Source of the DNA: Chthoniobacterales bacterium | GTDB taxonomy: Bacteria > Verrucomicrobiota > Verrucomicrobiia > Chthoniobacterales > Chthoniobacteraceae | Length of the DNA: 64,000 bases | Direction: 5' to 3' | Assembly (NCBI GenBank): GCA_038207335.1 | Contig: JBBQZX010000009.1 | Span: forward strand, 64,001 to 128,000 | Shown: positions 32,013 to 58,322 of the stretch, piece after piece | Layout: every line of letters starts with the position of its first letter | Numbering within the stretch: position 1 is the first letter of the stretch | Program-made: the position numbers and the translations under genes | Notes under the pieces: model-generated | The model's database searches: none | What the model was told of the DNA's origin: nothing | What the model saw: only the letters and a program-made list of their open reading frames with translations

Positions 32013-32726
32013 TTACTTCCGGTCCGCCGCGGCCGCTTGCGGCAACTTCGCCTGCTCCAGCAGCGATGCCCGAAGCTGATGCAGTTCCGCATTTTTCGGC
32101 TGCGCCGCAATAGCCGCGGAAATCGCCTGGAGCGCATCGTACCAGTAGCCTGCCTGTGCAAATAGAACGGCGCGGTCCGCAGGCGAAGCGGATGTGACTT
32201 TCTCACTGAGTTCCGCAGGCTCTTCGACGCGCTTGATCATCCCGCTGGCGATCACGTCTTTCGACCGGTTCTTCGGGTCGGCGATCAGCGCGACGCTCCA
32301 CTGGTAGGCGACGCCGGGCGCGAGCGAGACGTTGTAGCGCGCGAGCGAGACGCTGCGAATGCCGGCTTTTTCCGCGGAACCGCCGCCGATGTTGAGCAGG
32401 GGCTTCGCCTTTTTCGGCTCGGTCAGCGTGAGCTCGAATTGCGCCTTTGACGGCAATGTCTGGAACCAAAACAGCGACGGCTGTGCCTGCGTCGTGAGCG
32501 CGAGATGCTCAGGCACGAGGACGTAAAGGGACGGGAGCTTTTCGCCGCTTCCGCGCGAGCCGCCGTCGCCGTCCATGCGGGAGCCGCCGGTGGTTTTCGG
32601 CGGCGTGTATTTGAGAGCGCCGAGTTTCTTGGGCGGCGCGGGAGGAGCGGCGGGCGCGGGTTTTTCCTCCGCGAAAATGGCAGGACCAAATGCGATGACG
32701 GCAGCGAGTGTGAGGAGCGTTTTCAT
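32013..32726 (-). CDS. DUF928 domain secreted protein
   Basis: Signal peptide; GGSRG, LTTQAQPSLFW, YQWSVAL, AGYWYDAL and RASLLEQ motifs. Confidence 0.85.
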   Translation of the reverse strand: MKTLLTLAAVIAFGPAIFAEEKPAPAAPPAPPKKLGALKYTPPKTTGGSRMDGDGGSRGSGEKLPSLYVLVPEHLALTTQAQPSLFWFQTLPSKAQFELTLTEPKKAKPLLNIGGGSAEKAGIRSVSLARYNVSLAPGVAYQWSVALIADPKNRSKDVIASGMIKRVEEPAELSEKVTSASPADRAVLFAQAGYWYDALQAISAAIAAQPKNAELHQLRASLLEQAKLPQAAAADRK

Positions 32727-32738
32727 GGCGGGGGTTTT

Positions 32739-34691
32739 CTAGGACGCGGAGGCGATGACTCGATGCACGATGATCTTGTCCGCCTTGCCTTTCAAGCTCA
32801 TCGCACCGAGGGCGATCGTGCGGTATTTGCCGCGCAGTCGCTCGAATGTGGAGTCGCCGATGAGGATCGTACAGGGGCTCACGGGCATGTCGGGGCCGAC
32901 AGCTTCCTTCCCCGCGCTCTCGAGCCGCGCGGCGGTGTTCACGATGTCGCCGAGCACGGTGAATTCCATGCGCTCCGAAGTGCCTAGACTGCCCGCGACA
33001 AGCGGGCCCGTGTAGATGCCGACGCGCATCTCGGTGGTGGGCAAACCATCTCGCCGCCAGCCTTCGTTGAGTCCGATCAAAGTCTGCTCCATCGCCAGCG
33101 CGCACTTTACCGCGCTCGCCGCGTCGTGGTCTTTGCCGGCCTCGTCCTCGCTCGGGATCGGCGCGCCGAAGACCGCCATGATCGCGTCGCCGATGAATTT
33201 GTTCACCATCCCGCCGTTCGCCTCGACGTGACTGCCGACGGCGTCGAAGTAGTGGTTCATCCAGTCCATCAGCGTCGCCGGGTCCATCTTTTCCGACGTG
33301 GTGGAAAAGCCCTTGAGGTCGGTGAAAAGCACGGTCGCGGTGATGCGTTTCGCCTGCATCCGGCCTCCGTCGAGGAAGGCTTCGCGATTCGCCCACAGCT
33401 CGTCGGCGACTTTCCTGGAGACGTGTTTTGAAAAGAGCGACTGCATCGCGCCGCGCTCGCTGCTTTCCAAATATGCGGTGAAGGAAGTGACAAAAGTCGC
33501 GGCCACTGCGCAACCGAGCGCGGGCGCGGCAACGAGAATCCAGACGCCGTGCGCATACATCTGCCAGCCTGCGAGGCCAATCGCGCCTACGAGCAGCGCG
33601 AGCGCCAGCGCGAGCTTCCACGGCGAACGGAAACGCAGGCCGATCGCACCTCCCAAAAGCGTGGCCGCTGCGATCCAAAGCGTCTCCGCCCAATCGGGCC
33701 ACCACGTCGTCGGTGCCTCGCCATCGAGCGCGCCGCGGAGGAGCTGATTGGTCATCATGACGTGCTGCTGCACGCCGCGGAAGTTGTCGTCGATCGGCGT
33801 TGGGTTGCTGTCCTTGATGCTCTGCATGACGGTCGCCATGACGACGATTTTCCCGGCGAGCGCGCCCGCCGGCAGGCGGCCTTCGATCACGTCGCCGAAG
33901 CTGTAATCGTACGGCGTATTTGTTCCGTATTGGCCGTATTTATCTTCCACTCGGAAGCGTCGTGGAGCCTTGAAATCAACGAGATACTCGTAGTCGCGCA
34001 CCTTCAATCCGACGTATCCGCCAGCATTCGGCGTGAGCCGCGGGAAGACGGTTTTGCCGAGCTTCAGCAGCGGCGCGCCGTCCGGTCCCGGAACGAGTTC
34101 CGCCTCAACTCCGTGCTCCGTGAGATACCGCCGAGCGACCGCGAGGCTCAAGCTTTCCTCCGGCTCCGGCACGCCGCTTTCGACCAGCAGCGGCCCGCGC
34201 CGATACAAGCCATCGACGCCGTAGTCTTTGATCAAATTATTTGCCGCCACGCGCTCCGTCTCCGCGAGCGCAGGCGACGCTTTCACGAATCCGACGCGCT
34301 CGATCCCGACCACGCGCTCGAGCTTTTTGAGCGCGCTTTCGAGCTGCGGAAAAAGCGAGCCGTTCCGCGGTTCGGGGAGGTCGCGATACATGTCGAGGCC
34401 GATCACGGCGGGTTGTTGCGCGGCGACGCCTTCGAGCACGCGCGCGAGCATCGCGTCGTCGAGCGGGAAGCCGTACCGCACGAGATCGTCCTCAGTCATG
34501 CCGACGATCGCGATGCGGTCGTCGGTCGATGCGGGCCGCGCATCGAGTTTGATGAAGGCGTCGTAAGCAATCAATTCCGGGCGCTGGAGCCAGCCGCTCG
34601 CACGCACGCCGAGCACGACTGCGAGCACGAGCAGGCTGATGAGCGCGCACGCGACCCACGGGATGTGCAGCGCTTTTCTGAGGGCCTTCAA
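32739..34691 (-). CDS. CHASE2-domain class III adenylate cyclase
   Basis: TM-CHASE2 (ELIAYD, VIGLDMYRD, GKIVV) followed by 3 TM; FTDLKGFS, KFIGDAIMA, RVGIYTG and FTVLGDIVNTAARLE motifs. Confidence 0.92.
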   Translation of the reverse strand: MKALRKALHIPWVACALISLLVLAVVLGVRASGWLQRPELIAYDAFIKLDARPASTDDRIAIVGMTEDDLVRYGFPLDDAMLARVLEGVAAQQPAVIGLDMYRDLPEPRNGSLFPQLESALKKLERVVGIERVGFVKASPALAETERVAANNLIKDYGVDGLYRRGPLLVESGVPEPEESLSLAVARRYLTEHGVEAELVPGPDGAPLLKLGKTVFPRLTPNAGGYVGLKVRDYEYLVDFKAPRRFRVEDKYGQYGTNTPYDYSFGDVIEGRLPAGALAGKIVVMATVMQSIKDSNPTPIDDNFRGVQQHVMMTNQLLRGALDGEAPTTWWPDWAETLWIAAATLLGGAIGLRFRSPWKLALALALLVGAIGLAGWQMYAHGVWILVAAPALGCAVAATFVTSFTAYLESSERGAMQSLFSKHVSRKVADELWANREAFLDGGRMQAKRITATVLFTDLKGFSTTSEKMDPATLMDWMNHYFDAVGSHVEANGGMVNKFIGDAIMAVFGAPIPSEDEAGKDHDAASAVKCALAMEQTLIGLNEGWRRDGLPTTEMRVGIYTGPLVAGSLGTSERMEFTVLGDIVNTAARLESAGKEAVGPDMPVSPCTILIGDSTFERLRGKYRTIALGAMSLKGKADKIIVHRVIASAS

Positions 34692-34697
34692 AGCGGA

Positions 34698-37019
34698 TCA
34701 GAGCCAGTTGCCGATGATGAGATACGGCGCCCAGAGGCACGGGTGGGCGTAGCGCGGATCGTTCAGCAGCTTGATCTGCGCGCCTTGCAGCGCTTTGGCT
34801 TTGGAGAGATTCGGGTCGTCGTGCAGCGCGGTGTAAAAGTCGATGATGAGCTTCGTCGAAGCCTCGTCATTCACGAACCACAGCGTCGCGAATGCGCTCC
34901 GCGCGCCCGCCTTGATCGCAATGCCCGCAAGCCCGAGCGCGGCGCGATCGTCGCCCGCCGCGGTCTGGCAAGCGCTCAGCGAGAGCAACTCCACCGGCTG
35001 ATCGCGGAGCTGGCTTGGGCGGATCATTTGCTCGAGCTGATTGAGTGAAAGTTCGCCGTCGTACGTCAGAACGAACGTCTTCTTCACATCGGCATTGAAC
35101 TCCCCGTGCGACGCAATGTGGACGATCGAATACGGCTTCTCCGCGAATCCCTTCGTCACACGATCCGTGAGAAACGTCCCATTCATCAGCGGCTCGCCAC
35201 CATACAGCGACTGCAACTGGCTCACTTCTTTTTCCACGAACGGCAGCGCCGCGAACTCCGCGCCGTCGCGATTCACAGCCTTGGAGAGCCCGTTCACCAT
35301 CAGCGAGACATTCCCGCGCTTGATCGGCTTCGGCTCCATGAGCGTGAGCCCCGGCGTCACGGCGACCGCATATTTCTCGATGAGAAAATGCTCACCGTCG
35401 TGCAGCGCGGACATCGGAATTGTCCGCAGAGCGCCATCCGGCACGAAGACCAGCGTGTCGATTTTGTGCTCCGCGAGCATCGGCTCCAGAGGCTTGATGA
35501 GCCACGTGTAGAGCTGCTGCGCCTCCGCGAGATATTCGTAAGTCGTCCGTTTTTCGAGATGGATGCGGAAGTCGCGGATCACGTCCGTGAGCTGCTCCGT
35601 CCCGACCGGCGCCTTCACGCGCTGAAGCCCGTCCTTGAGGCTCACGAGCAGCTCCGTGCGATCCGGCAGCGGGATGAGATACACGACCGCGGCGGTCGCC
35701 GATATGCCCTCGATGGTTTTCCTTTTCGACTGCAAAAGATTCACGCAGTCGTCCTGAAAATAGTCCTCGAGCTCGACCGATTTCAGCAGCTCGCAGGTGT
35801 CGCGCGCCTCGATCAGCGCAGCCGTGCGCGCCTTGTCATCCGCGAGTCCATCCGCGCGCTGCAGCAGCAAATCCGCGAGCCCGAAAAACACGCCACCGAC
35901 CTCCACCCGAAACGACGAGTGCGCGTTCACATTGCCGAGCCGGATCGTGAGGTCGTTGCGGATTTGCGACAGGCTCTTGATCGAGCGCCGGTAGTCCGCG
36001 ATCGCGTCGTCGCGCCGCCCCTCCGCGCGGTCGAGCCGCGCCGTCTGCCACTCCCATCGATACAGCGCCTCGCGCGAGCGCGACTGCTGCGCTAGGAAGG
36101 CCGCGCGACGCGTGAGTCGCAGAGCCTCCGCATATTTTTTCTCCTGTTCGTAAAGATGCCCGGCATACCCGAGCCCGTACGAGAGTGCGCGGTCATCGCC
36201 CACGTTCTCCGCCACCTTCATCGCCGCCTCGTAAGCCTTCATCGCATCGCCACGCCGCTTGTTGTCATGCGCGGGAGCATTTTCAAAGAGCAACTCCCAG
36301 GTCTTCCCGGCGCGCAGCAGCGCGAACGCCTTGTCATGCGAATCCGGCAACGCCTCCGCCGCCTTGATCGCAGCTGCATTCAGCGCCGCCGCGTGTGAAA
36401 AATCACCGCCCGCCACTGCTGCGTTCGCGAGGCTCCCGCGCGCCTGCGCCGTGAGCACGGCATCGCCGCCAGCCATCGCCGCGGCGATCGTCTCGCGGAA
36501 GACGCCCGCCGCCTCCGCATCGCGTTCCTGCGCTGCGAGCAGGCTGCCGAGATTATTCAGCGCAGTCGCTTGCGCCGCCTTGCTCCCGGATTTCTGCGCG
36601 AGCTTCACCGCCTCGCGGAGTTTCTCTTCCGCGCCCGCCGCGTTGCGCGAAAAGGTGTTCAGCGCACCGAGATCCGCGAGCACCGCAGCCGTCCGCGCCT
36701 CGTCTTTGATCTCCTTCGCGAGGCTCAGCGCATCGCCGAGCGCCTCCATCGCCAGCCGATGCTGCCCGAGCGAATGATACACGCCGCCGAGCTGTTCCAG
36801 CGCATCGCATTGCCCCGTGCTGTCGCCCTTCTTCCGGCAAAGCTCAGCCGCCTTTTTCAAGTCCACGATCGCCGCCTCGAATTCCCCGCCACTCACCGCC
36901 TTCTCCGCCGAAGCGGTGAGCTGCTCCGCCGTCAGAGCCCCGAGCGAAACCCCCGCGCCACAAAGGCAAGCCAGCACCCCGACGGTAATGAAAAGACTGA
37001 GTGCGCGTGGGGCGTGCAT
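34698..37019 (-). CDS. Secreted TPR + CHAT (caspase-like, HetF-associated) protease
   Basis: Signal peptide; TPRs; LVFVPDG.L, HIASHG (catalytic His), LSACQTA (catalytic Cys), ATLWFVND and HP..WAPY. Confidence 0.92.
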   Translation of the reverse strand: MHAPRALSLFITVGVLACLCGAGVSLGALTAEQLTASAEKAVSGGEFEAAIVDLKKAAELCRKKGDSTGQCDALEQLGGVYHSLGQHRLAMEALGDALSLAKEIKDEARTAAVLADLGALNTFSRNAAGAEEKLREAVKLAQKSGSKAAQATALNNLGSLLAAQERDAEAAGVFRETIAAAMAGGDAVLTAQARGSLANAAVAGGDFSHAAALNAAAIKAAEALPDSHDKAFALLRAGKTWELLFENAPAHDNKRRGDAMKAYEAAMKVAENVGDDRALSYGLGYAGHLYEQEKKYAEALRLTRRAAFLAQQSRSREALYRWEWQTARLDRAEGRRDDAIADYRRSIKSLSQIRNDLTIRLGNVNAHSSFRVEVGGVFFGLADLLLQRADGLADDKARTAALIEARDTCELLKSVELEDYFQDDCVNLLQSKRKTIEGISATAAVVYLIPLPDRTELLVSLKDGLQRVKAPVGTEQLTDVIRDFRIHLEKRTTYEYLAEAQQLYTWLIKPLEPMLAEHKIDTLVFVPDGALRTIPMSALHDGEHFLIEKYAVAVTPGLTLMEPKPIKRGNVSLMVNGLSKAVNRDGAEFAALPFVEKEVSQLQSLYGGEPLMNGTFLTDRVTKGFAEKPYSIVHIASHGEFNADVKKTFVLTYDGELSLNQLEQMIRPSQLRDQPVELLSLSACQTAAGDDRAALGLAGIAIKAGARSAFATLWFVNDEASTKLIIDFYTALHDDPNLSKAKALQGAQIKLLNDPRYAHPCLWAPYLIIGNWL

Positions 37020-37082
37020 GGCTGCGGGAGACTATTCAAAGATTCGCTCCTCGGCGCAACGCCGTTGCGCGCGCTCGACTCG

Positions 37083-40000
37083 TCAATTTCCGCTCGCGAC
37101 GCCTTCGATGGAGAGGAATTCGCCGCCGTATTTGACGGTGCCGAGCTGGAGCGGGTTTTCGAGGCCGAGTCCACCGAGGAGAGGCGCGGGCTCTTGCAGG
37201 AATTCGCTGCGGAGGGTCTGGAACAGGAACTGCCCGGGATTGATCGCGGCGGGGGAGTAGTAGGCGCGGAGATCGTGCCCGCGCGTGTCGCCAAAAGAGT
37301 AGGGGGCATTCACCTGCGTGATCCGCACGTCGCTCGGGTAGTCGCGGATGACGGAGCTCGGGAAGCTGGCGAGCCAGTTGCCGCCGGCATCCACGATGAC
37401 TGTCTGCGAGCCGATGCGGTCGCCGTTCGCGTTGTAGAGATCGATGCGGAGCGTGGCGCCGGGGTCGGCTTCGCCGGAGTAAATCGGCGCAATCGGCAGC
37501 AGCGCGTCGCGCCAAATGTCGATCGTGCCGAGGTGTCCGTCGAAGTCGGGCCTCTTCGGCGGAAGCGCGAAATTATTGAAGCTGTCGTAGGCGAAGAAGG
37601 TGAGGCCATTCGGCACAGCCGGCACGCGGTCGAGCCGGATGGTGCGGTCGGCGCTGTCGAAGTAATCGTTCAGCGGATCGCCGCCGCCGAATGTCCCGCT
37701 GCGCTCGTTTGCATTCGCGCCGGGGAGGCTGGTCCAGACGATCTCGGCGTGGTTGACGGCGGAGGAAACCGGCGCGGTGACGCGCACCTGATAGGTCACC
37801 GTCGCGGTCGCACCTTCAGCGAGTCGCGCGAGCGTGATGTCGATCGTGTTGCCGCTGCTGCTGTCGGCGGAGGTCGTCGCGCCATTCACCCGCACGCTCC
37901 CGGCAACGAGCTGCAGCCCATTTGGCAGCGTGTCGCGGAGGTGCAGTTCGAATGCGTCCGCGCCATTCGCACCGGCGACGTTCTTGATCGTGATCGTGAA
38001 AGTCACGGTCTGCCCGACCTGCGCGGTGGCGCGATCCGCGGTCTTCGTGAGCTGCACATCCGGCTCGACGACGCGAGCGCGCACGGTGTTCGAGGTGCTG
38101 CCGGGGACGCCGACCGGCGCGTCCTCCGCGACACCGTCGCCCGTCACGTCGTAGCGCAGCGCAAAGCTGTTATCGAGCGCCGCGCTCGTCTGGTTGCGGG
38201 CTTCATTGAGCACGCGCTCGTTGAATTCCACGACGAGCTGAGTCACCGCGCCGTTCTGCCCTGCGACCGTTCCGATTTTGAAAAACACATCCGTCCCGCT
38301 GCGGTAGCGGTCGTCGTTCGTCGTTGCGTTCGCGGAGATTTGCTCGTCGGTGAGCAGCGTGCTGGCGCCCGGCGTGTTGTTCAAAATGAACGTCGCGGTC
38401 GCAGTCGCATCGTTGAGGAAAACGAGGCCGTTCGGCAGAAAATCGCGGAGCTGGAAATCCGTGAGAGTGCCGTCCGGCGGAATGTTCGCCGTCAGCCGGT
38501 AGCGCACGATTTCGCCGATCGCAAGATTGGCTCCGGTGGTGTGCGCGGCGTTGGTGGAGGTAATGCTTTTCACGAAACCGAAGGGGAAGATTTCCGCGAA
38601 GTTGTATCCCGTTGCGTTCACCGCCGCGCCGAGGCCGATGTTCGAGATGCGGTCGTTCCTGAGTATGAGACCGCCGACGGAACCGGGCGTGTCGATGCCG
38701 TCGAGGTAGGAGCCGGGCTGCGTCTCGGTGATGGCATAATTCCCCGCGAGCAGCAGCGTGAAAGTGTATGTACCGTCCGGGCCAGTCGTCTGCGTAATGG
38801 AATTGGGCAGCCCGTTCACGTCCGTGCCGGTCAGGGTCACGGTCGTATTGAAGATGCCCGCATCGACGCCATCGAGCAGTCCGTTGTTGTTGTCGTCGCG
38901 GAAAACTCGGCCCGAAATGCTCCCGGTCGTTTCGCCGAAATCCAGTCCGTTCAAGCCCTGGAGTGGCACGGCGACCGGCAGTGAATTCGGCGTGCTCGAT
39001 CCGTAGCCTGCGGGCTGCGTCTCCTCGATCGTGTAATTTCCGACCGCGAGCCCATCGAACGAGTAGGTGCCGTCCGGGTTCGTCATCGTCGTCGCGACGA
39101 CCACGCCATTGTTGTCGCGGAGGTTCAGCGTGACGCCGCCGATGCCCGGCTCGGTGCCGGTGATCGACCCGCTGAGATCGTCGTCGCGGAAAACCGTGCC
39201 TGTCAGCGACGCGCCGACTTCGTCAAAGGTGTAGCCCGTCGCGTCGATGCCGCCGTTCAGTGCGATGCCGGTCGTCACGTCATTTCCCGCGATGCCGCCC
39301 GCCGTGCCGGCCATGTCGAGCCCGTCGTTGTAGGCCGCGGGCTGATCTTCGGTGATCATGTAGGTGCCATTGAAAAGTCCGCCAAACGAGTAGCTCCCAT
39401 CGCTCGCCGTCATCGTGTTCAGCGCGACCGCGATGCCGCTCGCCGAGGTGCCCGTGAGATGCACCGCGACGCTGCCGATGCCGCGCTCGCTCGTGCCGCG
39501 GACGCCGTCGTTATTCCCATCGACGAAGACCGATCCCGCGACGCTGTTCAGCGTCTCGCCGAAATTGTTCCCGTCATTCACCATCCCGCTCGCGACTGTG
39601 ATTCCAGCGATCGTATTCGGCGTGTCGGAGCCGTAGTCGATCGGCTGATTTTCCACCACCGAGTATCCGCTGCCGGCGGGGACGTTGTTGAAAATGTAAC
39701 TCCCGTCCGGGTTCGTCGTCGTCAACCCGATCAAGTTTCCATTCACGTCGAGCAGCGTGAACTGCACACCGCCGACTCCTGCCTCGCCACCGGTGAGCGT
39801 CATGTCGCGATTCGTATCGACGAAGACCGTGCCGGTGATCGCGCCGGTGCCCGGATTACTCACCAGCGTTTCACCGAAATTGTAGCCCGTCTCGTTCGTC
39901 CCTGCGCCGAGTCCGATGCCCGAGATCACGTCGTTCACGAGTGTGCTGCCGCCCGCCGTGCCCGCCGTCTCAGCTCCGTCGGTGTAGGCCGCTGGCTGCG

Positions 40001-43000
40001 TCTCGCTGAGCGAGTAGGTGCCCGCGAGCAGGCCGGTGAACTGATACGTCCCATCGCCCGCAGTCGTTGTGCTGAGGCTGATCGCCACGCCATTCGCATC
40101 CGTGCCGGTGAGTGTGATCATCACGCCGCCGATGCCCGCGTCCGGCGCGGTGAGCGTGTTGGAATTATCCACGTCCCGATAAACTGTCCCCGCCAGTGAG
40201 CTCGTCGTCTCGCCGAAATTCTGCCCCATCAAACCGCTCGTCGGCACGTTCACCGTCAGCACATTCGCGGTGCTCGAGCCGTAGCCGTTCGGTTGCGTCT
40301 CGGTGATCGTGAACTGACCAGCGTCGATGTTGTTGAACACGTAGCTGCCGTCTGGGTTCGTCGTCGTCATCCCGACGACGTTGCCGTTCACATCGCGCAG
40401 CGTGAGTGAGACGCCGCCGATTCCCGGCTCGCCGTTGTCGAGCGTCGCGGAGTTATCGCGATCGATGAATACCGTGCCGGAAAGCGACGGGAGCAGTTCG
40501 CCGAAGTTGTAGCCCGTCGCGTCGATGCCGCCGTTCAGTGCGATGTTCGAAAGCACGTCGTTGCCCGCCGTGCCGCCGCTCGTGCCGACGCTGTCGATCC
40601 CGTCCGCGCGCGTCGCAGGCTGCGTCTCGGTGATCGTGTAATTCCCCGCGAGCAGCCCGCCGAACGAATACGTGCCATCGCTCGCCGTCATTGTGCTGAG
40701 GCTGATTGGCGCGCCGGTCACGTCCGTGCCGCTGAGCATCACCGCGGCCCCGCCGATGCCCGTGTCACCGCCTTCGATGAGCCCGTTGTTATTGAAGTCG
40801 GTGAAAACCGTGCCCGCGAGGCTGCCCAGCGTTTCGCCGAAGTTCTGATTCGCAGTCGTCTGGTTCGCGGCGACCGCCACGCCGGTGATGAGATTCGGCG
40901 TGTCCGAGCCGTAGCCGAGCGGCTGCGTCTCGCGCAGTTGATAAGTCCCCGGCGGGAGATCCTGGAACGAATACGAGCCGTCCGGCGCGGTGTTCGTCGT
41001 CGCGAGGAAATTGCCGTTCGCATCGAGCAGGTCGATTCTCACGCCGCCGAGACCGGGCTCATTCGGGTCGATGGTCGTGTTCTTGTTTCTGTCCACGAAG
41101 ACCACCCCGGTGATCACACCGAGCGTCGGAGTCGCCCCGGAGACCTCACCGAAATTGTATCCGGTCGCGTCGTTGCCGACTGGCAGACCGATCGCGCTGA
41201 CGATGTCGTTTCCGAGCGTGCCGCCCGCAGTGCCCACGGCATCCAGCCCATCCGCGAAACCGCCCGGCTGCGTCTCGCGCACCGTGTAATTTCCCGCGAG
41301 CAAATCGCCGAAGACGTAGCTCCCATCGGACCCCGTGGTCGCCGTGCGATTCACGTTCGCGCCTGCCGCGTCCGTGCCGGTCAGCGTGAGCAGCACGCCG
41401 CTGATGCCCGGCTCCGCGCCATTCTGCGCGCCGCTGGTGTCCTGGTCGAAGAACACGGTACCCGCGAGACTGCCGAGCGTTTCGCCGAAATTCTGATTCA
41501 TCAATCCGCCGACCGGCACCGTGATTTGCAGCACATTCGGGCTGCTCGATCCGTAGCCCGCGGGCTGCGTCTCGACGATGCGGTAGTCGCCCGCCGGGAT
41601 GTTGGGGAATGTGTAGTTTCCAAATTCATCCGTCATCGTCGTGCCGATCATCGTCGTGCCCGTGCTGTCGAAAATCTGCACCGTGACGCCGCCAATCCCT
41701 GTGTCAGCGGGCGTTTGCAGTGTGCCGTCTCTATTCACATCGAGGAAAACGGTGCCGGAAACGCCGGACGCGATTTCACCGAACGTGTAGCCCGTGCCGT
41801 CGAAGCCCTGCGTGAGCGCGATGTTCGAGAGCACGTCGTTCCCTGCCGTGCCGCCGAGCGTGACGACCGCGTCGATGCCGTCGCTGAAGTTCGCAGGCTG
41901 CGTCTCGGTGAGCGTGTAGGTGCCGGGCCGCGGATTTGCGAAGGCGTAGCTGCCGTTGCCGCCGGTCATCGTCGTGAGCAGAACGGCTTGTCCCGCGAAG
42001 TCCGTGCCGGTGAGCGTGATCAGCACGCCACCGATTCCGGGCTCGCCGATATTCTGCGCGCCGGAGTTGTTGTCATCTCGGAAGACCACGCCCGCGAGCG
42101 AGCCGGGGAGGACTTCGCCGAAGTTGTAGCCGTCGCCCGCGACGTTCGATTGCGGCGGGATGACGACGGACGAGATCGTGTTGCTGCCGAGCGCGTCGGA
42201 CACCGTGCCGCCGAATGGCATGCCCGCCGTCTCGAGCGCGTCGATGAGCCCCGCGGGCTGCGTCTCGGTGATGAGGTAGGTGCCCGGCGGCAGGCTGGCG
42301 AAAGTGTAGCGGCCGAGCGCGTCGGTCATCTGCGTGAAGTTCACGACCAGCCCGCTGTCGGTCGTGCCGGTGAGCTGTACGGTGACGCCGGAGAGCCTCG
42401 GGTCGCCCGCCGTGAGCGTGCCGCTCGCATCCGCGTCGCGATAAATCGTGCCGCTGGTCGAGTTGATATTCACCACGATCCGGACGCTGTCCTGCGCCGG
42501 ATCGATGTCGTCTGCGGGTGCCTCGACGACGCCCGGCTGCGCGCCGTAGTCGCGATCCGGCGTGCCGTCGAGTGTCCCAGTGAGGACGCCGTTCGGCTCG
42601 TCGTTTGCCGAGCTGTCCCAGTATAGGCGGGCGTTGTTGCCGTGCGTCGTGCCGGTGTTCGCGAAAGCATTCACGACGACGGTTTGATACGTGACGGTCA
42701 CGGTGCCGCCGACCGCGAGCTGGTCGAGGTCGAGCGAAAGCGCGGAGGTCGTCGAGGCATTCGCGGTCAGCGCCGCGCCGTTCACCTGGATGCTCGTCGG
42801 GTCGAGCACGAGCCCGGCTGGGATGGTGTCGCGCACTAGCAGGTCGAACGCGGTCGCCGTGCTGCCCGGCTGATGCGTGAGCGTGAGCGTGAAGGTGAGC
42901 ACCTGGCCGATGTCCGGCGTCGCGTCATCGACCGATTTCACGAGCTGCAATTTCGGCTCCACGATCGTCACGACAGGATCGACCGGCGTGCCCGTCGTGT

Positions 43001-46000
43001 CAGGCACGATGATCAGCGTCGGCGTCCCGTCGCTCAGCGGACCGTCGGGATCAGTGAAGGTCAGGTTGGCCGAATTCGTGAGATTCGCGCCGCTCACATT
43101 CGTCGCCAAATCCGCGGCGCGCGCGGTGAGCAGGATCGAGAAGCTGTCATTCGTCGCGTCGTTGTCAGCCGCGTTCGTGAGCGTGCCGAGGGTGAAGACG
43201 AGAGTGGTGCCGGTGGCCTCGGATCCTGTGCTGGCGGGGCTTCCGAGGACAAATGGCGTGACGCCCGAGCCTGTGAAGTCGGCGGTGGCCGAGAGGAATT
43301 CCAGACCCGCCGGGAGGAAATCGGTGACGATCGTGCTGCGCGTTGTCCCCTCCGGCAGCGTGATGAGGATGCGATACATCACCGACTCGCCGATGGACAA
43401 ATTCGTGCCCGTGGTCGCCGGATCGCTCGTGCTGAGGAACTGCTTGTCGATCGTCGGCTTCGCGATGTTGCGCGCGGCGGAGGTCGCGCCGATCGCGTAA
43501 TTATTGAGCACCGCGTCGTTCAGCGGCGCTGAGTTGTCGGTAGGCGCGGGCACGTCGGTGCCGTTGCGCTCGCCGGTCGCGGAGCCGCTGCTGCCGGGCG
43601 AAGTGACGACGCTGCCCGCGCTCGTGAGCGTGGTGAGCGTCGCGCCGGAGCCGGGCAGGCTCGAGTAGCTGGCGGTTGCGGAATTCAGAATCTGCGCGCC
43701 CGCCGGGGCGTCGGCGACGACGCGGGTCGTGAGCGTGAGCGTGATGGAATAGCCCGCGTCGAGGCGGGAGAAAACGAGGTCGAGCGCGCCGAGCGTGGAG
43801 GAGTTCGTGAGCGCGGAATATCCCGGCGCGGAGACTGCGATGCCGCTGCCGATCGTCGTGTCGATGAGCTGCAGCTCGATCGTCGGATTCGCTGCCGTGA
43901 TCGCGTCGAGGATGTCGCGAAAGCGCACGTCGAACGCCGAGGTCGCGTTCGCTCCGCCCGCGTTGTTGGTCACGACGATTTGATACGTGAGCGTATCACC
44001 CGCATCGACCGGGTTCGCCGCGGTCACGGTCGTTTTCGTGATCGCGAGATTCGCCTCCGCGACGACCACCTGCGGCTGCGCCGCCAGGGTTTCGCCGACT
44101 TCGTTCGCGCTCGTCTTGCCGTTGGCATCGAGATCGTAGAGCGTCTCGAAGCCGTTCGTGAGCGTGCGTCCCGACTGGTTTGCCGTCTCGTTGACGACCC
44201 TCGTGTTGAACTCGATGACGACGAATTCGCCGTCCGCGTCGTTGGCCGCGTTCGTGACATTTCCGAGGTGAAAGTAGATGTCGCTGCCGCTCACGAAGGT
44301 CTGCGAGGCACTCGCGAGGTCGCTCGAAATCAGCGCGCCGCCGAGCTGGAAAGTCGGCGTGACATTTCCACTCGAACCCGCCGCAAAGGCCGCCGGATCG
44401 ACGATCGCGGAGGAAGAGATGCCGCCGTTTGCTCGAGACGAAGACCAGCGTCGCGCTGCCGTCGTTGATGAATTGCAGCCCGTCCGGCAGCATGTCGTGC
44501 AGCAGGAGATCGCCAAACGTGCTTTCGCCGAGTTGAAGCGTCACGCGGTAGCGCACGAGCTCGCCGACCGCGACGCGCTCGACCCCGCCGACGAGGCCGG
44601 TGAAGGTCTCCGAGGTCGCGACGATCGCCTTCGTGAGGCCGGGCGCGAAGGTCTCGCCAAAGTTGTAATTGATTCCCGTGTTATTGCCCGGCGCGACGTT
44701 CACGATGACGATGCCGCTGAGCACGTCGTTGCCCGCCGTGCCCGCGCTGTTCGGCGCGGAGAAGCCCGTCCCCACAGCATCCGCGCCGTCCGTGAAGCCG
44801 CCCGGCTGCGTCTCGGCGAGCGTGTAGCCCGCCGCGTTGCTCGGGCGCAGGCCGCCGAAAGTGTATGCGCCGGTCGGGTCGGTGAAGGTCGTGCGGCTCA
44901 CGGGATTCCCGAGGTCGTCCGTGCCGGTGAGCGTGATTTGCACGGCGTTGATTCCGGCCTCGTTCGCACCTTTTACCGCGTTGCCATCGATGTCGTTGAA
45001 GACGAATCCTGAGAGGCTCGCGGGCAGTAATTCGCCGAAAATGTAGCCGGTCGCCGCGGTGTCTTGCGGCAGCATTATCGAGTAGATGACGTCGTTGCCC
45101 GCGGTGCCCATCGCAGTGCCAGCGGTGTCGCGTCCATCGAGGTATGTCGCGGGCACGGTGCCTTCGGTGATCGTGTAATTTCCGGGGCGCAGCCCCGCGG
45201 TGGCGTTGTCGAAAATGTAGTTGCCGTTGCCGTCGGTCATCGCCGTTGCGGTGACAGACTGCCCGTAAACATCGGTGCCCGTGAGCGTGACGGTGATGCC
45301 GGAAATGCCCGGCTCGCCCGCCTCGCGCGTGCCGCTGTTGCTGTCGTCGCGATAAACCGATCCCGCGAGCGAGGCCGTGAGGACCTCGCCGAAATTGTAT
45401 CCGATGCCCGTCTGCGAGACCTGCGCGGGGATCGTAATCGTGCCGATGAGATTCGACCCGGCGGCGCCGGAAACGGTCCCGCCGAAATTTGTCCCCACGG
45501 TCTCAAGCGCGTCGGTGTAGTCAGCCGGCTGCGTTTCGCTGAGCGTGTAATTTCCCGACGGCAGATTGCCGAAGCTGTAGCTGCCATCGTCCGCCGTCAT
45601 CGTGCTGAGGCTGATCGGCAGCCCGCTGAGGCTCGTGCCGCTGAGGAAAATCGGGACGCCGGTCAGCGGCACATCGCCCATGGAAAGCACGCCATTCACA
45701 TCCACGTCCTGATAGACGAAGCCGCTGATCGTGCTCGCATTCACGGTCACGCGGACAGTGTCCTGTGCCGGATCGCTATCCACATTTGCCCCCTCGATTA
45801 CGCCGGGCTGTGCGCCGTAATCGCGATCCGGCGTGCCATCGGGAGTGCCCGTCAGCACGGAGTTCGCATCGTCCACCGCGAGGCTGTCCCAATAGAGACG
45901 AGCGTTCTTGTCAAAGGTCGCGCCGGGAGTCGCGAGCGTGTTCGCGACGGTCGCCTGATACGTGATCGTGGCAGTGCCGCCGACGGCGAGTTGGTCGAGC

Positions 46001-47445
46001 GTGAGGTCGAGCTGATTGCCCGCGCTCGCATTCGAGGTGATGCCGGCACCCGTCACGGTGATGGACGAGGGATCGAGAGTGAGCCCGGCGGGGACGAGGT
46101 CGCGGAGGATGAGGTCGTAGGCGGTCGAGTTGCTGCCCGCCGCGTGCGTGATCGTGAGGGTGTAGGTCAGCGTCTGTCCGAGGTCCGGTGTGTCGTCGCT
46201 CACGCCTTTCACGATCTGCAAAAGCGGCTCGACGACGGTGACGGTCTCGGTGTCCTGCCGCGTGATCGGGCCGGTGCCGGGGTCGTAGCTGGCGTTCGCG
46301 ACATTCGTCTTGATGGACTGCGCGGCGGTGCCGAATGCGTTGTTCGCCGCAGTGTCGAGCACGTCCGCCTGATAGGGACGGTGATCGTATTCGCCACGCC
46401 ATCGACCGCGCTCATGACGTTCGCGATGCTCAGCGAGATCGAGTTCGCGGCGTTGGTGAAATTTGCGCCATTGATCGTAACTCCCGCGCCCGGTGTGAGG
46501 ACGACGGAGCCGGCGACGAGCTGCAGCCCGGCAGGGATGGCGTCGGTTAGCGCGAGATTCTGGATCGTGCCGTCGGCGACATTCAGCGTGAGCGTGTAGC
46601 TGAGCCGCTCGCCGATTTGCGCGAAGCTGTCGCCGACGATCGCCTTATCCAGCGCGAAGGTGGCCGCGCCGCTGTCCACGGTGCGCGTGGTGGTGTCTCG
46701 GAGTTCGTAGTCGTTGAGCCCGCCGGCATTGAGCAGGCTGTCGCCATTCGCGCGCTCGTTTGCGCTCGCGCCGGGGAGGCTCTACCAGACGACATCGGCG
46801 AGATTCGTGAGCTGCGAGCCGAGCACCGTGGCGCTCGTGACCGTCGCGGTGTAGGTGACGGTGACGCTGTCGCCGACGGGAATGTCGTAGGTGCCGCGCA
46901 GCCCCGTGCCGCCGCCGGTGACCGCCGCCCCGCTCTGCGCGGTCGCGCCGCCCGTGAGCGTGGTGCCGGTGATCGCGGTGATTTGCAGGCCAGTCGGCGC
47001 GGTATCCGTGAGCAGGGAATCGAACGCCGTGCTGCCGCTGCCGGCCGCGTGGGCGGAGGCCGGTCGGGAGATTCTCAAGCAGCTGAAAATCGGCGAGCGA
47101 ACCCTGCGGGACGGTGACGACGAGGCGAAAGCGCGCGACTTCGCCGATCACGAGATTTGCGCCGTTTGTGGCGCTCACGGTGGTGCTGACGAGGCTCTTC
47201 GTGAGCTGCGCAGTGAAGCGTTCGCCGAGGTTGTTCGCAGTGCCGTTCGTGTTCGGCACGACGACGATATTGCTGAAAACATCATTGCCCGTCGTGCCGC
47301 CCTGCGTGCCGATCGTGTCGATGCCGGGGAGCAGGTTGTTGAAGGCGTAGGTGCCGTTGCCGAGTGTATTCTGCGTGAGCGTGACCGTCGCGCCGGTGAA
47401 GTCCGTGCCAGTCAGCGTGATGAGCGCGCCGGCGACTGGAAGCGG
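37083..47445 (-). pseudogene. Giant repetitive surface adhesin (SdrD B-like plus DUF11/isopeptide fimbrial D2-like domains); 5' part truncated and disrupted, 3' ~7.3 kb intact
   Basis: Repeated SLAGTVF.D.NN.G....EPGIGGV..TLTGTD...Y.F..L..G.Y.I.ETQP..NFGE. Lesions at ~44429 (+1), ~46376 (-1), in-frame TAG at 46782-46784, and domain-skipping junctions at ~47056 and ~47324. No start codon or signal peptide upstream of 47445. Confidence 0.82.
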
Positions 47446-47714: not shown

Positions 47715-48800
47715 ATGCACATCCTTGCCCAACCGCTTGTCCACGCCCTCACCGCCACCCTTTTCACCAGCGCCTGCTTGGCCGGGGTAGGCTCGAATCC
47801 CGCGATGGAAAGAGCTCCGGTCCGGGCCACCTGGCTGAACCAGCCGATCGGGGTGACGCTCGAGGCTCGCACGGTCGAGCACGACGCCGCTTTCGGGATG
47901 CACATCGTGCGGCCGATCTTCCAAGGGCGGGTGTCTGCGGTGCTGCTCGAGGCGTATGGCTTCGAGGGTGAAGGGGAGCTCGGGCTGGTCGGCGGCGGCG
48001 CGATTTACCGCACGGACATCGGTCGCCGGAGTGGCTTCGAGGCGAGCGCGTTTTTTGAGGGATTGCGGAGCACGGACGGGTTTTCGTATCCGCAGTTTGG
48101 CGCGGGTCTGGTCTTCAGCATGGATCGCTGGCTCCGGCTAAGCGCGAATGGCTATCTGCCGCTGCGGGGCAAGGATCGGGTGCGCGACGGCTCGGATCGT
48201 TTTACCGAGACGGAGGGGAGTGGAGCCGGGCTGCGCGACGTGTCCTACTCGCGCGATCGGTTCTCGGAGCGGGCGCCGATGCGCGGCTTCGATGTGGAGG
48301 CGGAATTTCGCCTGTCGCATCCGCCGCGTTGGGTGGATCCGCGGCTGGCGATCGGCTACGCGTATCGCGAGGCGGAGGATCGGCCGGAGGTTTACGCCGG
48401 GCCGCTGGTGCGCGGGGAGCTGCATTTTGGGAAACACTGGGTCGCTGAGAGCGAATGGCGGCACGACATGCACGGCGCGGATCAGGAATGGCGCGTCGGC
48501 ATCCGGTTCGAGACGCTCTTCGGCGGGCCGAAGCCGCGCGTAGAACGCCCGGCGGTGGCGTCCAACGGGAAAAATGCGGTGCCGCTCGAGGACGCGGCGG
48601 AGCCGGCGGACGACCGGGCCAGCGAACGTTATCTGCCGGTGCAGCGCTTTCCGTGGCCGACGCTGGCGCGCGGCGTGACCCGGGGAAAACCGCGGCGCGG
48701 CGACACGCGTCTGCTCGCGCCGGCACCTGCGTCCGCGCCCGCCCCGGCAGACCCCGGTGACTGCTGCCCGAGCGGCAACGCGCCTCTCATTTTCGACTGA
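47715..48800 (+). CDS. Putative inverse autotransporter (intimin/invasin-like) beta-barrel domain protein
   Basis: GGGAIYR, QFGAGL, LSANGYLPL, MRGFDVEAEF and WRVGIRF amphipathic strands; no passenger domain. Confidence 0.6.
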   Translation: MHILAQPLVHALTATLFTSACLAGVGSNPAMERAPVRATWLNQPIGVTLEARTVEHDAAFGMHIVRPIFQGRVSAVLLEAYGFEGEGELGLVGGGAIYRTDIGRRSGFEASAFFEGLRSTDGFSYPQFGAGLVFSMDRWLRLSANGYLPLRGKDRVRDGSDRFTETEGSGAGLRDVSYSRDRFSERAPMRGFDVEAEFRLSHPPRWVDPRLAIGYAYREAEDRPEVYAGPLVRGELHFGKHWVAESEWRHDMHGADQEWRVGIRFETLFGGPKPRVERPAVASNGKNAVPLEDAAEPADDRASERYLPVQRFPWPTLARGVTRGKPRRGDTRLLAPAPASAPAPADPGDCCPSGNAPLIFD

Positions 48801-48845
48801 GCCGCTCCCGGCCAGATCGGACCAACCTTCTTCACCTCTCCATTT

Positions 48846-51800
48846 ATGCTCGTTTCTTTCACCTCCATCCTTTCTCGCAAATGGCTGCTGCTAGCAGCCG
48901 GCGCGCTCCTCACGACCGCCTCGGCGCACGCGGGATCCGCGGCTCCCGCGCGGAGTGAAACTGATTTCGCGCAACCGGAGAAACTCACCGAAAAGCAGCG
49001 CGCTGCGATCCATTCGGTCGTGCGCGATTCGACGGAGCAGATTTGGTTTCAGGAGAACGTCGGGCAGTTTCCGAAAGAGGCGCGTTACGGGTTCAAGACG
49101 ACGTTTGGCTCGATGCTCATCTTTGAGAATCACCTTCGCATCGTCGCGAATCAGCGGGACGCAGCGACCGGCGTGGTCGGCGTGCAGGCGGTCGATCTTG
49201 CCTTTCCCGGCGGCACGGGAGCGTGGGAGATCGTGACGGGCGGCGCGTCCGCGGTGACCGGTTCATATCAGCAAAAGGACGGCACGACGCTGACGCCGCG
49301 CATTTTCAACGAGCTCACCATCCGCAACATTTACGACGGCGTGGACCTCCGCGTTTACTCCGCGGACAAGGGCGTGCTCGAATTCGACTGGATCGTGGCG
49401 AAGGCGCAGGACTACGCGCAAATCCGCCTCGCGGCGACGGGGCAGGACGGGATGATTTTCAACGCCGACGGCTCGGCGACGCTCGGCCTGCGTTTTCAAG
49501 ATCTCACGCTGAACATGCCGGCGACGTATCAGGTGATCGACGGCGAAAAGCACGCGCTCCACGGCGCGATGGTCGCCGCGGAAACGCCCGGCACGATGCG
49601 CTACGCGATCTCCGGCGACCTCGTCGCGGACCAGCCGCTGATTATCGATCCGAACGTCGTCTGGTCCACCTACATCGACCTGAACGATCTCGCGACGGAC
49701 ACCACCGACTCGACGCCCAGCGCGCCGTTCGATTCCTACATTTTCGCGGTCAACGCCAACGCCAACGGCACCTACGCGTCGGGCTGGATCGGCGAGATCA
49801 TCACGAATGGCTCATACGCCAATTACATGGAGGTGAACGCCGGCTTCGTGCAGGGCACGGTGGTCAACCAGACGTATCTTTACCGTCTTTCGAACGACGG
49901 CTTGAACATCACTGCCTGGACGAGCACGGGGGTGACGTCGCCCACTGGCGGCGTGACGAATCAAAAGCTTGGCGCGGTGCCGGCAGACTTGGAGTTGTTC
50001 CCGGACGGGCGCGTGATCCTCGGCTTTGGCAACGGGCTCGTGCAGATTTATTCGGCAAATCTCGGAGCGCGGGGCTACTCGGGTACTCCGGTGACGATGG
50101 ACACGCTGAACTCGGTCGCGGTCGTGAATAACAACTCGTTTTACGTCGGTGGACGGGTCGCGGCGGCGATCCCGATCGCCCAAATCCCGGTGGCGAACGT
50201 CGGCCCGGACGCGACTTTCGCCGGCACGCTGGAGGGCGTGATCATCCGCTACTCGAACGCGGCGACGACCCCGACGCCGGATTGGGCAACCTACGTCGGC
50301 GGCGACGCGCAGGAATATTTCACCGCGGTGTCGATGACGCCCGATCTCTCGAAAGTGGTCTTTGCCACGAGCACCACGGGCGGCGCGAATTTTCCCGCGT
50401 TGGTGAACGCGGTCGATTCCACGATCTCCGGCACGGAGCTGCTCGTCGGAGTGCTGGCGGAGTCGGCGACGAAGCCGGCGGCGTTCAGTGTCTTCTCTTT
50501 TCTCGGCGGCACCGGCGACGAAGGGACGGTCGCCACGAACACGATGGCGGCATTGGTCACGGCCACAAACACCGATTTTTTCGTCGGAGGCACCACGGCT
50601 TCCACCGATCTGCCCGGCACGGTCGGCGGGGCGCAGCCGGCGAATGGCGGCGGCGTGTTTGATGCGTTCGCCTCGCGCATCCCGCTGAATGGCAGCGCGG
50701 GAGTCGGCTTCCAAAGCACCTACATGGGCGGCGCGGGCCAAGATCGCATCGGCGGCATCGCCTATGACGTCCGAGCGGACCGGCTGCTGATTTTCGGCAC
50801 GACGACGGGGACCTTTCCGACGGTCGATACTGTTCCGCCGAGTAACTATTACGCCAGCGCGTTCGGCGGCGGCACTTACGACATCTTCGTGGCAACGGTG
50901 AACGGCGCGCTGACGCTGAAGGATTACGCCACCTACATCGGCGGCAGCGTGAACGATTACCTCGGCCAAACGGGCAATCTCGTCGGGCAGGGTCACGTGG
51001 TTTACAGTCAGGCGACCGGGCTCACTTATCTCGCGACGACGGTGCATTCGGCGGATCTCCCAGCGAGCGCGATCGGCACGCCGCCCGGCAAGGACCGCGT
51101 GAAATCCAACGGCGTGAATGACACGCATTTCGTCATCGCCTTCAACATCAACTCCTTCGACTACGGCGACGCACCGGCGACGTATGAGGGCGGCTCGCCC
51201 GCGCGGGAAGCGCTCACGGCCACCCTGCGCATCGGCGCGACGATCGATGCTGAAGCCACGGCGGCGAGTGGCGTCGGCGCGACCGGCGACGACCTGCTCA
51301 CCTCCGACGACGAGGACGGCATTGCGGCGCTCCCGACGCTGCTGACCACGCAGACGAGCCATTCGGTGGCTGTCTCGGTCTTCAACAACACGGGCGTCGC
51401 GCGGACTTTGCGCGGCTGGATCGACTTCAATTTGAACGGCACCTTCGAGGCTGGCGAATCCGCTAGTGTGAGCGTGCCGGCGAGTGCGGTGCAGCAGACA
51501 GTGACGCTGACGTGGGCGACCCTGCCTGGAATCACCGCGGGACAGAGCTATCTGCGGGTGCGGCTTTCCGACACCGCGCTGGTCGATAACGCCGGGACGG
51601 CGAACATCGACGAGCGCTCCATCGGCACGGGCGGTTCGGGTGAGTTGGAAGATTACGCGCTCACGATCGCACCGCTGACGCTGGCGGTAAGCAACGTCTC
51701 AACGACCGAAGGCGTCGATCCGTTCGCGATTTTCAATGTGACGCTTTCGCAGCCATCGCCCTCGGCGGTCACGGTTTCGCTGGCGCTGGCCAATGGGACT

Positions 51801-57773: not shown

Positions 57774-58322
57774 AAAAAAGGAGAGGTCGTCGCGCGGCTC
57801 GACACCGCGACTTTGGCCGCCGAACTCGACATCGCAAATGCCGAGGCCAAATTGCAGTCGACCCGCAAATCAAGGCTGGAAGAGCTCGGGACGGCGAATC
57901 GCTCGACGCCGGAGGAGCTGGAAAAGGCGCGCACCGACCTGACGATCAAGCAGGCGCAGGTGCGGAAAATCGAGGCGATGATCGAGAACCGCACGATGCG
58001 GAGCCCGGTCGCCGGCGTCGTCACCGAGATTAAGCGCGACCCGAGCGAGAGCGTCTCCGCCGCACAGCCGCACGTCCTCACAGTCGTGCAAATCGACAAG
58101 CTGATCGCCAATCTTTTCCTCCCGCCTGCGCGTGCCGAATCCCTGAAAACTGGCGCCATCGCCGAGCTTCAGCTCCTCGACGAAAATCAAAAAGCGCCCG
58201 CGACGATCGAGTTCGTCAGCCCGATCACCGACTCCGCGAGCGGCACGGTGCGCGTGAAATTCGTCATCGATAACACCGCCGGCACACACCGCGCCGGCGG
58301 CCGCTGCACCCTCGCGGAGTAG
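57774..58322 (+). pseudogene. N-terminally truncated efflux/secretion membrane-fusion (periplasmic adaptor) protein
   Basis: KKGEVVARLD, helical hairpin, MRSPVAGVV and FVSPITDSASGTVRVK; in-frame TGA just upstream; anchor and first lipoyl half missing. Confidence 0.72.

Follow-up and report, generated by a model that had tools for sequence, protein, structure and literature searches.

A conserved CHAT protease, CHASE2 cyclase and DUF928 gene trio that probably works with two-partner secretion proteins, next to the remains of a giant adhesin gene

On the minus strand of a 64-kb stretch of a Chthoniobacterales genome (named homologues indicate Chthoniobacteraceae, Verrucomicrobiota; contig C9 of genome G000, positions 64001-128000; hereafter "the window", within which all positions are numbered), genes for a TPR-CHAT protease, a CHASE2 adenylate cyclase and a DUF928 protein follow the end of a giant SdrD_B/DUF11 adhesin. 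The question raised by this locus is whether the adhesin belongs with the three genes, e.g., as the substrate of the protease, or is a bystander. An initial annotation had read the trio as an envelope protease and sensor-cyclase unit in which the adhesin replaces the usual two-partner secretion (TPS) genes. The first part is upheld by gene conservation and co-occurrence, but the part given to the adhesin is not: its gene is broken, its pairing with the trio recurred at 0/47 and 0/18 comparable loci, and TpsA/TpsB genes are found elsewhere in this genome (5.17 Mb, 94.7% complete). On balance, we favor a reading in which the intact three-gene cassette works in trans with short GRGG-tailed TpsA and with TpsB proteins, while the upstream adhesin gene comes from another secretion family, is broken, and most likely reached its place by rearrangement.

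The trio consists of three intact open reading frames (ORFs):

34698-37019, minus strand: TPR-CHAT caspase-like protease, 773 aa (PF12770, E 4e-55), with an N-terminal hydrophobic stretch, H638/C684 and D718

32739-34691, minus strand: CHASE2 receptor adenylate cyclase, 650 aa, with a TTG start and three transmembrane (TM) helices (PF05226 and PF00211)

32013-32726, minus strand: DUF928 protein, 237 aa (PF06051, E 1e-36), with a hydrophobic N-terminus, a Pro-rich linker and an immunoglobulin (Ig)-like plus TPR-like fold

Gaps of 63, 6 and 12 bp separate the adhesin remnant from CHAT, CHAT from the cyclase, and the cyclase from DUF928. Of the four co-oriented genes originally described, the gaps and the three intact ORFs thus stand, but the adhesin is not a single gene spanning 47445-37083, being interrupted by frameshifts and a stop. 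The trio itself is a real, intact, conserved and testable module. N-terminal and TM calls throughout come from a hydropathy scan, not from a signal-peptide predictor.

In the protease, PF12770 follows TPR repeats and carries the His/Cys dyad (H638 in HIASHG, C684 in LSACQTA), which is intact as first read and invariant in 22/22 aligned homologues. Together with a Csx29-like fold, this places the protein among the clan CD TPR-CHAT proteases. A search of the CHAT-domain sequence against the PDB gave nothing useful and only the fold search gave matches, the model (predicted local distance difference test, pLDDT, 84) best fitting Craspase Csx29 (Z 27.8), then DdvA and separase. Signal peptides had been suggested for both CHAT and DUF928, and hydrophobic stretches are indeed present at residues 6-24 and 1-19, respectively; such a stretch is found in 16 of the 22 aligned CHAT rows, and 4 of the 6 lacking one are cut or late-starting. 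D718, invariant in the same alignment, would by analogy be the S1 acid. Because it sits 34 residues after C684, and the Asp that binds the P1 Arg in separase sits 41 residues after its Cys (PMC10317155), the spacing suggests that CHAT, too, prefers Arg at P1. Two points weigh against this, i.e., that it relies on residue spacing and not on structural superposition, and that Craspases cleave after Met or Leu (PMC11506125). No paper matching the S1 pocket of CHAT was found in the Creative Commons (CC)-licensed PMC/bioRxiv literature. In a tree, this CHAT groups with the copy of the sister genome G005 (75% identity, its nearest CHAT) and the second CHAT of the genome with that of G019, which rules out a recent duplication as the origin of the two genes.

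The cyclase has the TM-CHASE2-TM-cyclase architecture of class III CHASE2 receptor adenylate cyclases. TM helices at 10-28, 360-378 and 383-401 flank CHASE2, in agreement with its proposed extracytoplasmic position above the cyclase. In an alignment with the closest PDB match, CyaB (3r5g, E 4e-27), D458, K498, D502, T578, N585 and R589 are all present, and D458, D502, N585 and R589 are invariant in 35 homologues; we take these to have catalytic-type roles, i.e., two Asp that bind metal, a Lys and a Thr/Asp for ATP, and an Asn and an Arg. Genome-wide, cyclic-nucleotide-binding domains gave 10 matches in 7 ORFs. Other CHASE2 genes of the genome (L003 on C2 and L004 on C29) adjoin genes for FecR-domain proteins, presumably an arrangement like that of NsrA, discussed below.

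For DUF928, the match to PF06051 (126.6 bits against a cut-off of 26) covers model positions 3-181 of 184, making it a full member of that family; NCBIfam holds no model for it or for the cyclase. In the linker, G55 and R58 of a G-x-x-R motif are invariant in 57/57 aligned homologues. The structural model (pLDDT 90) combines an Ig-like part with helical repeats, and MtxA (PDB 4z29) topped its fold searches (Foldseek E 7e-5; VIA Z 11.1, next 6.5), being the sole match above Z 8 among 48,161 chains. The match extends over 152 residues with a root-mean-square deviation of 4.1 and 15-16% identity, and covers only the solved, C-terminal part of MtxA. In magnetotactic bacteria, a CHASE2 cyclase gene comes after mtxA (PMC4439547), and DUF928 shares with MtxA both the two-domain fold (Ig-like and TPR) and the place beside a CHASE2 cyclase.

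We then asked which genes accompany the trio, using 80 metagenome DUF928 loci, only 11 of which reach upstream of CHAT. A CHASE2 cyclase lay within 1 kb upstream of DUF928 in 63 of 70 loci with at least 400 bp upstream, and CHAT was present in all 23 loci with at least 2.6 kb, always in the order CHAT-CHASE2-DUF928. Downstream of DUF928, and mostly convergent with it, TpsA or TpsB was found in 14/19 loci with at least 2 kb and in 31/46 with at least 600 bp. No match to the adhesin repeats or tail was detected in the 80 loci (only 11 extending past CHAT). When metagenome and genome loci were combined, the gene upstream of CHAT was visible in 18 other loci (two rows near-identical): three were TpsB, the rest varied, and none was an adhesin of this kind, an outcome that the initial annotation had named as refuting the role it gave to the adhesin. 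In four metagenome loci (L038, L059, L060 and L062), two CHASE2 cyclase genes stand in tandem between CHAT and DUF928.

A consistent picture emerged from 61 related genomes, for which Fisher tests are descriptive only, kin not being independent. Full-length DUF928 and this CHAT family occurred in the same 7 genomes. GRGG-tailed TpsA was found in 6 of these 7 and in one other genome (54% complete), while in the seventh TpsB adjoins DUF928 at the end of a contig. The trio is patchy in distribution, with 7/61 relatives and 4/401 genomes across the phylum, and in three distant genomes of the phylum DUF928 lay beside TpsA in 4 of the 6 regions fetched. The genome studied here encodes four GRGG-tailed TpsA (two on C12, one each on C14 and C15), with TpsB and the second CHAT on C12 in an arrangement in which TpsA-TpsB-CHAT faces the second TpsA. 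These are TPS proteins by their domains, with PF05860, TIGR01901, PF03865 and PF08479 on C12, and PF05860 and TIGR01901 on C14 and C15. In G032, CHAT, CHASE2-DUF928 and TpsA are found at three distant places on one contig. The usual trio-TPS module is thus complete in the present genome but split, as in G032. Just upstream of the convergent TpsA on C12, L001:6925-7620 holds a 3' fragment of a second TpsB, a sign of module rearrangement. Overall, we consider with good confidence that the trio works with TpsA/TpsB, against which it must be counted that 5 of the 19 metagenome loci with at least 2 kb downstream have no TPS genes there.

The DNA upstream of CHAT does contain SdrD_B, DUF11 and isopeptide-type repeats, as annotated, but as a series of fragments:

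47050-47436, minus strand: first recognizable adhesin fragment, closely preceded by a stop in its own frame, with a shortened SdrD-B repeat; the N-terminus of the family is missing

46370-47045, minus strand: next adhesin fragment, read in a different frame and interrupted by a TAG at 46784-46782

44440-46362, minus strand: middle adhesin fragment, out of frame with the 3' part, 53% identical to an intact homologue

37083-44430, minus strand: open 3' remnant of the SdrD_B/DUF11 giant surface protein, ~2,400 codons, with no hydrophobic export stretch; the database gene call P0121 starts inside it

37083-37661, minus strand: conserved C-terminal tail of a giant-protein family linked to SecA_DEAD/HlyD/M50/TolC

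Three-frame translation placed frameshifts near 47050, 46370 and 44430, along with the TAG and an internally shortened repeat near 47310. Repeat-like protein begins at ~47436, and a single long frame is confined to 44430-37083. A tblastn search of the whole genome (94.7% complete) with the initial 600 aa from each of two intact homologues returned no match. An assembly slip as the cause of the frameshifts is ruled out by run X1, in which one 11.9-kb contig spans 40516-52367 with 0 differences and 0 gaps, with the qualification that X1 may be the source sample, hence no second population, and that contigs drop rare variants. Four indel rows at 45111-45162, of depth 16 like the X1 contig, look like a repeat copy aligned twice, and none falls at a break. 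The relation to staphylococcal SdrD/SdrC MSCRAMM proteins is limited to the B-type repeats, with 332 bits against the NCBIfam cut-off of 2500.

Whether the 3' frame is still of use to the cell was assessed from its conserved sites, 19/400 of which were changed compared with 2.4% in the pooled homologues (rank 4 of 38 proteins; sites not independent). This excess leans toward relaxed selection, while the SdrD-B repeat columns (11/99 changed) lie inside the homologue range. Several observations point the other way. The middle fragment, which is certainly dead, shows no excess of changes (2/91 conserved sites), and the GC content at third codon positions of the 3' frame is not lowered (0.846). 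Moreover, the four lesions that break the frame are confined to the first 3 kb of the remnant, which is 10.4 kb long (a post hoc estimate puts chance at ~0.7%, or at 2.5% for three lesions), and because of this clustering selection may still act on the 2,400-codon frame. Co-transcription of the remnant with the trio is likewise possible, because it ends only 63 bp upstream of CHAT, in the same orientation, with no promoter- or terminator-like site in the gap; counts in the scan for such sites did not differ from those of shuffled sequence. Even if expressed, however, the remnant has no conserved tie to CHAT, and we regard the adhesin upstream of CHAT as very probably a bystander.

This lack of linkage is also seen from the side of the adhesin. 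Its C-terminal tail, described initially as unique, belongs to a family: a search with the final 192 aa returned 349 protein clusters at E<=0.001, and matches were found in 9/400 other genomes of the class, with no match in Pfam. Scanning genome contigs with an 8-row tail alignment gave 47 C-tail loci, of which 41 have at least 3 kb downstream. Within the DNA covered, CHAT or DUF928 stood beside the tail in 0/47 loci, and two loci hold just a cyclase domain, 5-6 kb away. Genes for TolC, HlyD, M50, SecA_DEAD or DUF3467 were found at 19 of the 47, two of which had supplied queries, and Pfam confirmed these neighbors; in many of the other loci, the 10 kb upstream are taken up by the giant gene. 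Among the 61 related genomes, the tail occurred in 3 of the 7 with the trio and in 5 others, lying on other contigs in G019 and G025. The overlap with the trio in 3/61 genomes is a point in favor of an association (p 0.04 nominally and 0.16 when confined to the family). In the sister genome G005, CHAT is preceded by non-coding DNA with no adhesin end in the preceding 180 bp, and the tail was not found in that 94%-complete genome.

Intact homologues of the adhesin are 3,400-7,300 aa long and mostly begin with an L-E-x-x-E-D-R-I-L segment, which we assume to be LEPRxLL-like. The remnant shares the C-tail of the SecA_DEAD/HlyD/M50/TolC giant proteins and lacks both their N-terminal segment and an intact frame. 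The conserved tail (190 aa) is a candidate secretion signal marking likely substrates of that module. Two seemingly whole HlyD/M50/TolC clusters, one with SecA_DEAD, are found on C16 (L194:5875-16344) and C18 (L196:1183-8135), with no giant gene beside them in the stretches fetched. C-tail giant genes at L233 (G028), L148, L156 and L157 also look interrupted, with short open frames inside long contigs, and breakage may be common in this family.

With the adhesin set aside, the trio likely relays a signal from a secreted surface filament into cyclic AMP (cAMP). We chose an outside-in direction from two precedents, i.e., LapG cutting the periplasmic C-tail of the TpsA protein CdrA (PMC5422565) and rhizobial CHASE2 cyclases responding via an outer-membrane protein (PMC13001267). 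TpsA would be exported through TpsB, its conserved Cys...SSFxxxGRGG tail likely kept in the periplasm, as suggested by CdrA, FhaB and HMW1 (PMC5422565). The predicted periplasmic TPR-CHAT would normally rest until something happening at the filament activated it, and would then cleave R-G bonds, after the Arg, of the TpsA tail (GR\|GG), the DUF928 linker (GGxR\|G), or both. DUF928 would serve as an adaptor of the MtxA type (Ig plus TPR), altering the output of the cyclase by binding its CHASE2 domain, and cAMP would act through one of the cyclic-nucleotide-binding proteins of the genome. The GRG near the TpsA end is invariant in 12/12 aligned tails, a figure inflated by the tails having been picked partly by this motif; neither GRGG nor GGxRG occurs in the adhesin remnant. 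Every step of this detailed scheme is inferred, and as a whole we hold it tentatively, at somewhat below even chances. Still more speculative is the broader notion that the trio is the core of an undescribed and widespread protease-gated pathway, in which CHAT cuts R-G in both the TpsA tail and DUF928, and processed DUF928 is the CHASE2 ligand.

The same trio-TPS co-occurrence would be expected under an inside-out, LapD-like control, in which CHASE2, acting via DUF928, holds or frees CHAT according to the state of the cell, CHAT sheds TpsA, and the cyclase is the controller. CdrA/LapG offers a precedent for this direction as well (PMC5422565). On C12, moreover, CHAT stands next to TpsA/TpsB without CHASE2. 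However, the cyclase retains its catalytic-type residues, whereas the domains of LapD are degenerate. The CHASE2 cyclases that have been studied are, in addition, outside-in receptors (PMC13001267), and we consider inside-out control unlikely.

Two further alternatives appear improbable to about the same degree. In one, the system raises an alarm at the envelope when phages or predators make contact, with TpsA as decoy or sensor and CHAT autoproteolysis starting the signal, as proposed for DdvA. DdvA, which is among the fold matches, is a periplasmic TPR-CHAT protein regulating a defence island (PMC11506125), and the patchy distribution of the trio (7/61 and 4/401) would fit such a role, but the window and the mapped loci showed no defence genes beside the trio (no PADLOC scan was made), and the cassette has no anti-sigma or sigma factor. 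In the other, the parts are co-inherited but act separately, CHAT just maturing TpsA while a small molecule is sensed independently by DUF928 and CHASE2. In favor of separate action are CHASE2-DUF928 pairs found apart from CHAT in G032 and G025, and the C12 CHAT with TpsA/TpsB apart from CHASE2, while the CHAT-CHASE2-DUF928 order in 23/23 informative metagenome loci and the exact 7/7 co-occurrence of CHAT and DUF928 at the genome level speak against it. The idea that CHAT in this lineage took on the SdrD-B adhesin, or just its open 3' portion, as a substrate whose release CHASE2 senses can point to co-orientation across a 63-bp gap without a terminator-like site, 2,400 open codons with the lesions clustered upstream, the lack of a TPS gene next to this trio, and the intact HlyD/M50/TolC clusters on C16 and C18, but it is very improbable given the broken gene without its N-terminus, the 0/47 and 0/18 pairings, the adhesin-free sister trio in G005, the absence from the remnant of an R-G motif like the conserved ones of TpsA and DUF928, the changed conserved sites of the 3' frame (19/400 against 2.4% pooled, set beside 2/91 in the middle fragment), and the expectation from type I secretion that a TolC-exported tail would likely bypass the periplasm. 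We give as little credit to a variant in which the 3' portion set free from a type-I-type giant adhesin is being recruited by this genome as an additional input to the TPS-linked trio.

How the remnant came to lie beside the trio may be read in part from the DNA further upstream of CHAT, on the opposite strand:

47715-48800 and 48846-57707, plus strand: inverse-autotransporter-like barrel and a 2953-aa adhesin, where G029 has the adhesin 5' part and TolC

57774-58322, plus strand: 5'-truncated HlyD-type gene without its first 63 residues, 69% identical to the HlyD beside the intact G029 adhesin homologue

In G029, the gene order is adhesin, divergent TolC, HlyD and M50. The HlyD stub is likely the other edge of an old secretion locus, and the block 47715-57707 likely an insertion that replaced the 5' part of this locus and broke it. 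Within the block, the barrel is passenger-less (atlas score 0.97, no Pfam match), and the second adhesin is intact, with DUF7948, GEVED, Calx-beta and Big_9 repeats; the two possibly form a split barrel-plus-passenger export pair. The pairing of the SdrD-B adhesin with CHAT is most likely an accident of rearrangement beside a decaying gene. Elsewhere in the window, an NB-ARC/TPR-type protein (17358-19478, minus strand) resembles the AfsR and HaaT models, below their cut-offs. About 23 long ORFs genome-wide start with an I-E-x-L-E-x-R-I-A-P motif, including the gene ending at 3420 of the window and one beside the TpsA of C15.

Little is understood of what CHASE2 receptors take as input, and substrates are known for few TPR-CHAT proteases. 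A candidate CHASE2 ligand and a protease are at hand in the cassette, along with two cleavage motifs and a cAMP read-out workable in Escherichia coli. The adhesin at this locus would mislead such experiments, for which the relevant candidate substrates are the TpsA tails and DUF928.

No description of the CHAT/CHASE2/DUF928 trio was found in the CC-licensed PMC/bioRxiv literature, where supplements of comparative papers may list the neighborhood. In the same literature, one paper has DUF928, in a passing neighborhood note (PMC5587647), and among the TPS papers matched there none mentions a CHAT domain or CHASE2. For the adhesin remnant, the nearest described system is the SecA_DEAD/HlyD/peptidase M50/TolC module (Kamneva 2015, PMC4452313). 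Intact adhesin homologues sit in such loci and the HlyD stub lies 10 kb away, but the giant gene here is broken and cut off, and the section of that paper on the module names no giant substrate. Nor is the neighboring giant adhesin a LapA counterpart: it is neither intact nor provided with an N-terminal retention/cleavage region, it is not linked to the protease (0/47, 0/18), and Pfam identifies CHAT and a CHASE2 cyclase in place of a LapG-type protease and a c-di-GMP (cyclic di-GMP) receptor. Lap-like logic may instead hold for TpsA, as it does for CdrA.

For the trio, the TPR-CHAT proteases Csx29, separase and Myxococcus DdvA share the fold and His-Cys dyad, DdvA being periplasmic as well, whereas the protease here is predicted to be exported and stands free, carrying neither a CRISPR effector nor an anti-sigma domain (PMC11506125, PMC10317155). 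In EACC2-caspase-CHASE2 proteins, the domains are fused in one polypeptide (PMC8195603), while CHAT and CHASE2 are here encoded by separate genes. The mtx cluster of magnetotactic bacteria likewise encodes a secreted Ig plus TPR protein directly beside a CHASE2 adenylate cyclase (MtxA, PDB 4Z29; PMC4439547). It differs in that DUF928 is 16% identical to MtxA, lacks its N-terminal part of ~140 residues, and is encoded after and not before the cyclase; the passages on the mtx cluster mention neither CHAT nor TPS. In Sinorhizobium meliloti (CyaD1/CyaD2/CyaK-NsrA-Clr), CHASE2 cyclases turn a protein signal received at the outer membrane into cAMP (PMC13001267), the input there being the beta-barrel NsrA, whereas the regular partners here are TpsA/TpsB, TPR-CHAT and DUF928. 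Pseudomonas CdrA/CdrB with LapG/LapD, finally, ties a periplasmic cysteine-protease cut of a TpsA C-tail, as predicted here, to a nucleotide second messenger (PMC5422565), with LapG in place of the caspase-like CHAT and a c-di-GMP receptor in place of an intact cAMP synthase. Taken together, each part of the cassette has a known counterpart, and its logic resembles that of NsrA/CyaK, mtx and CdrA/LapG.

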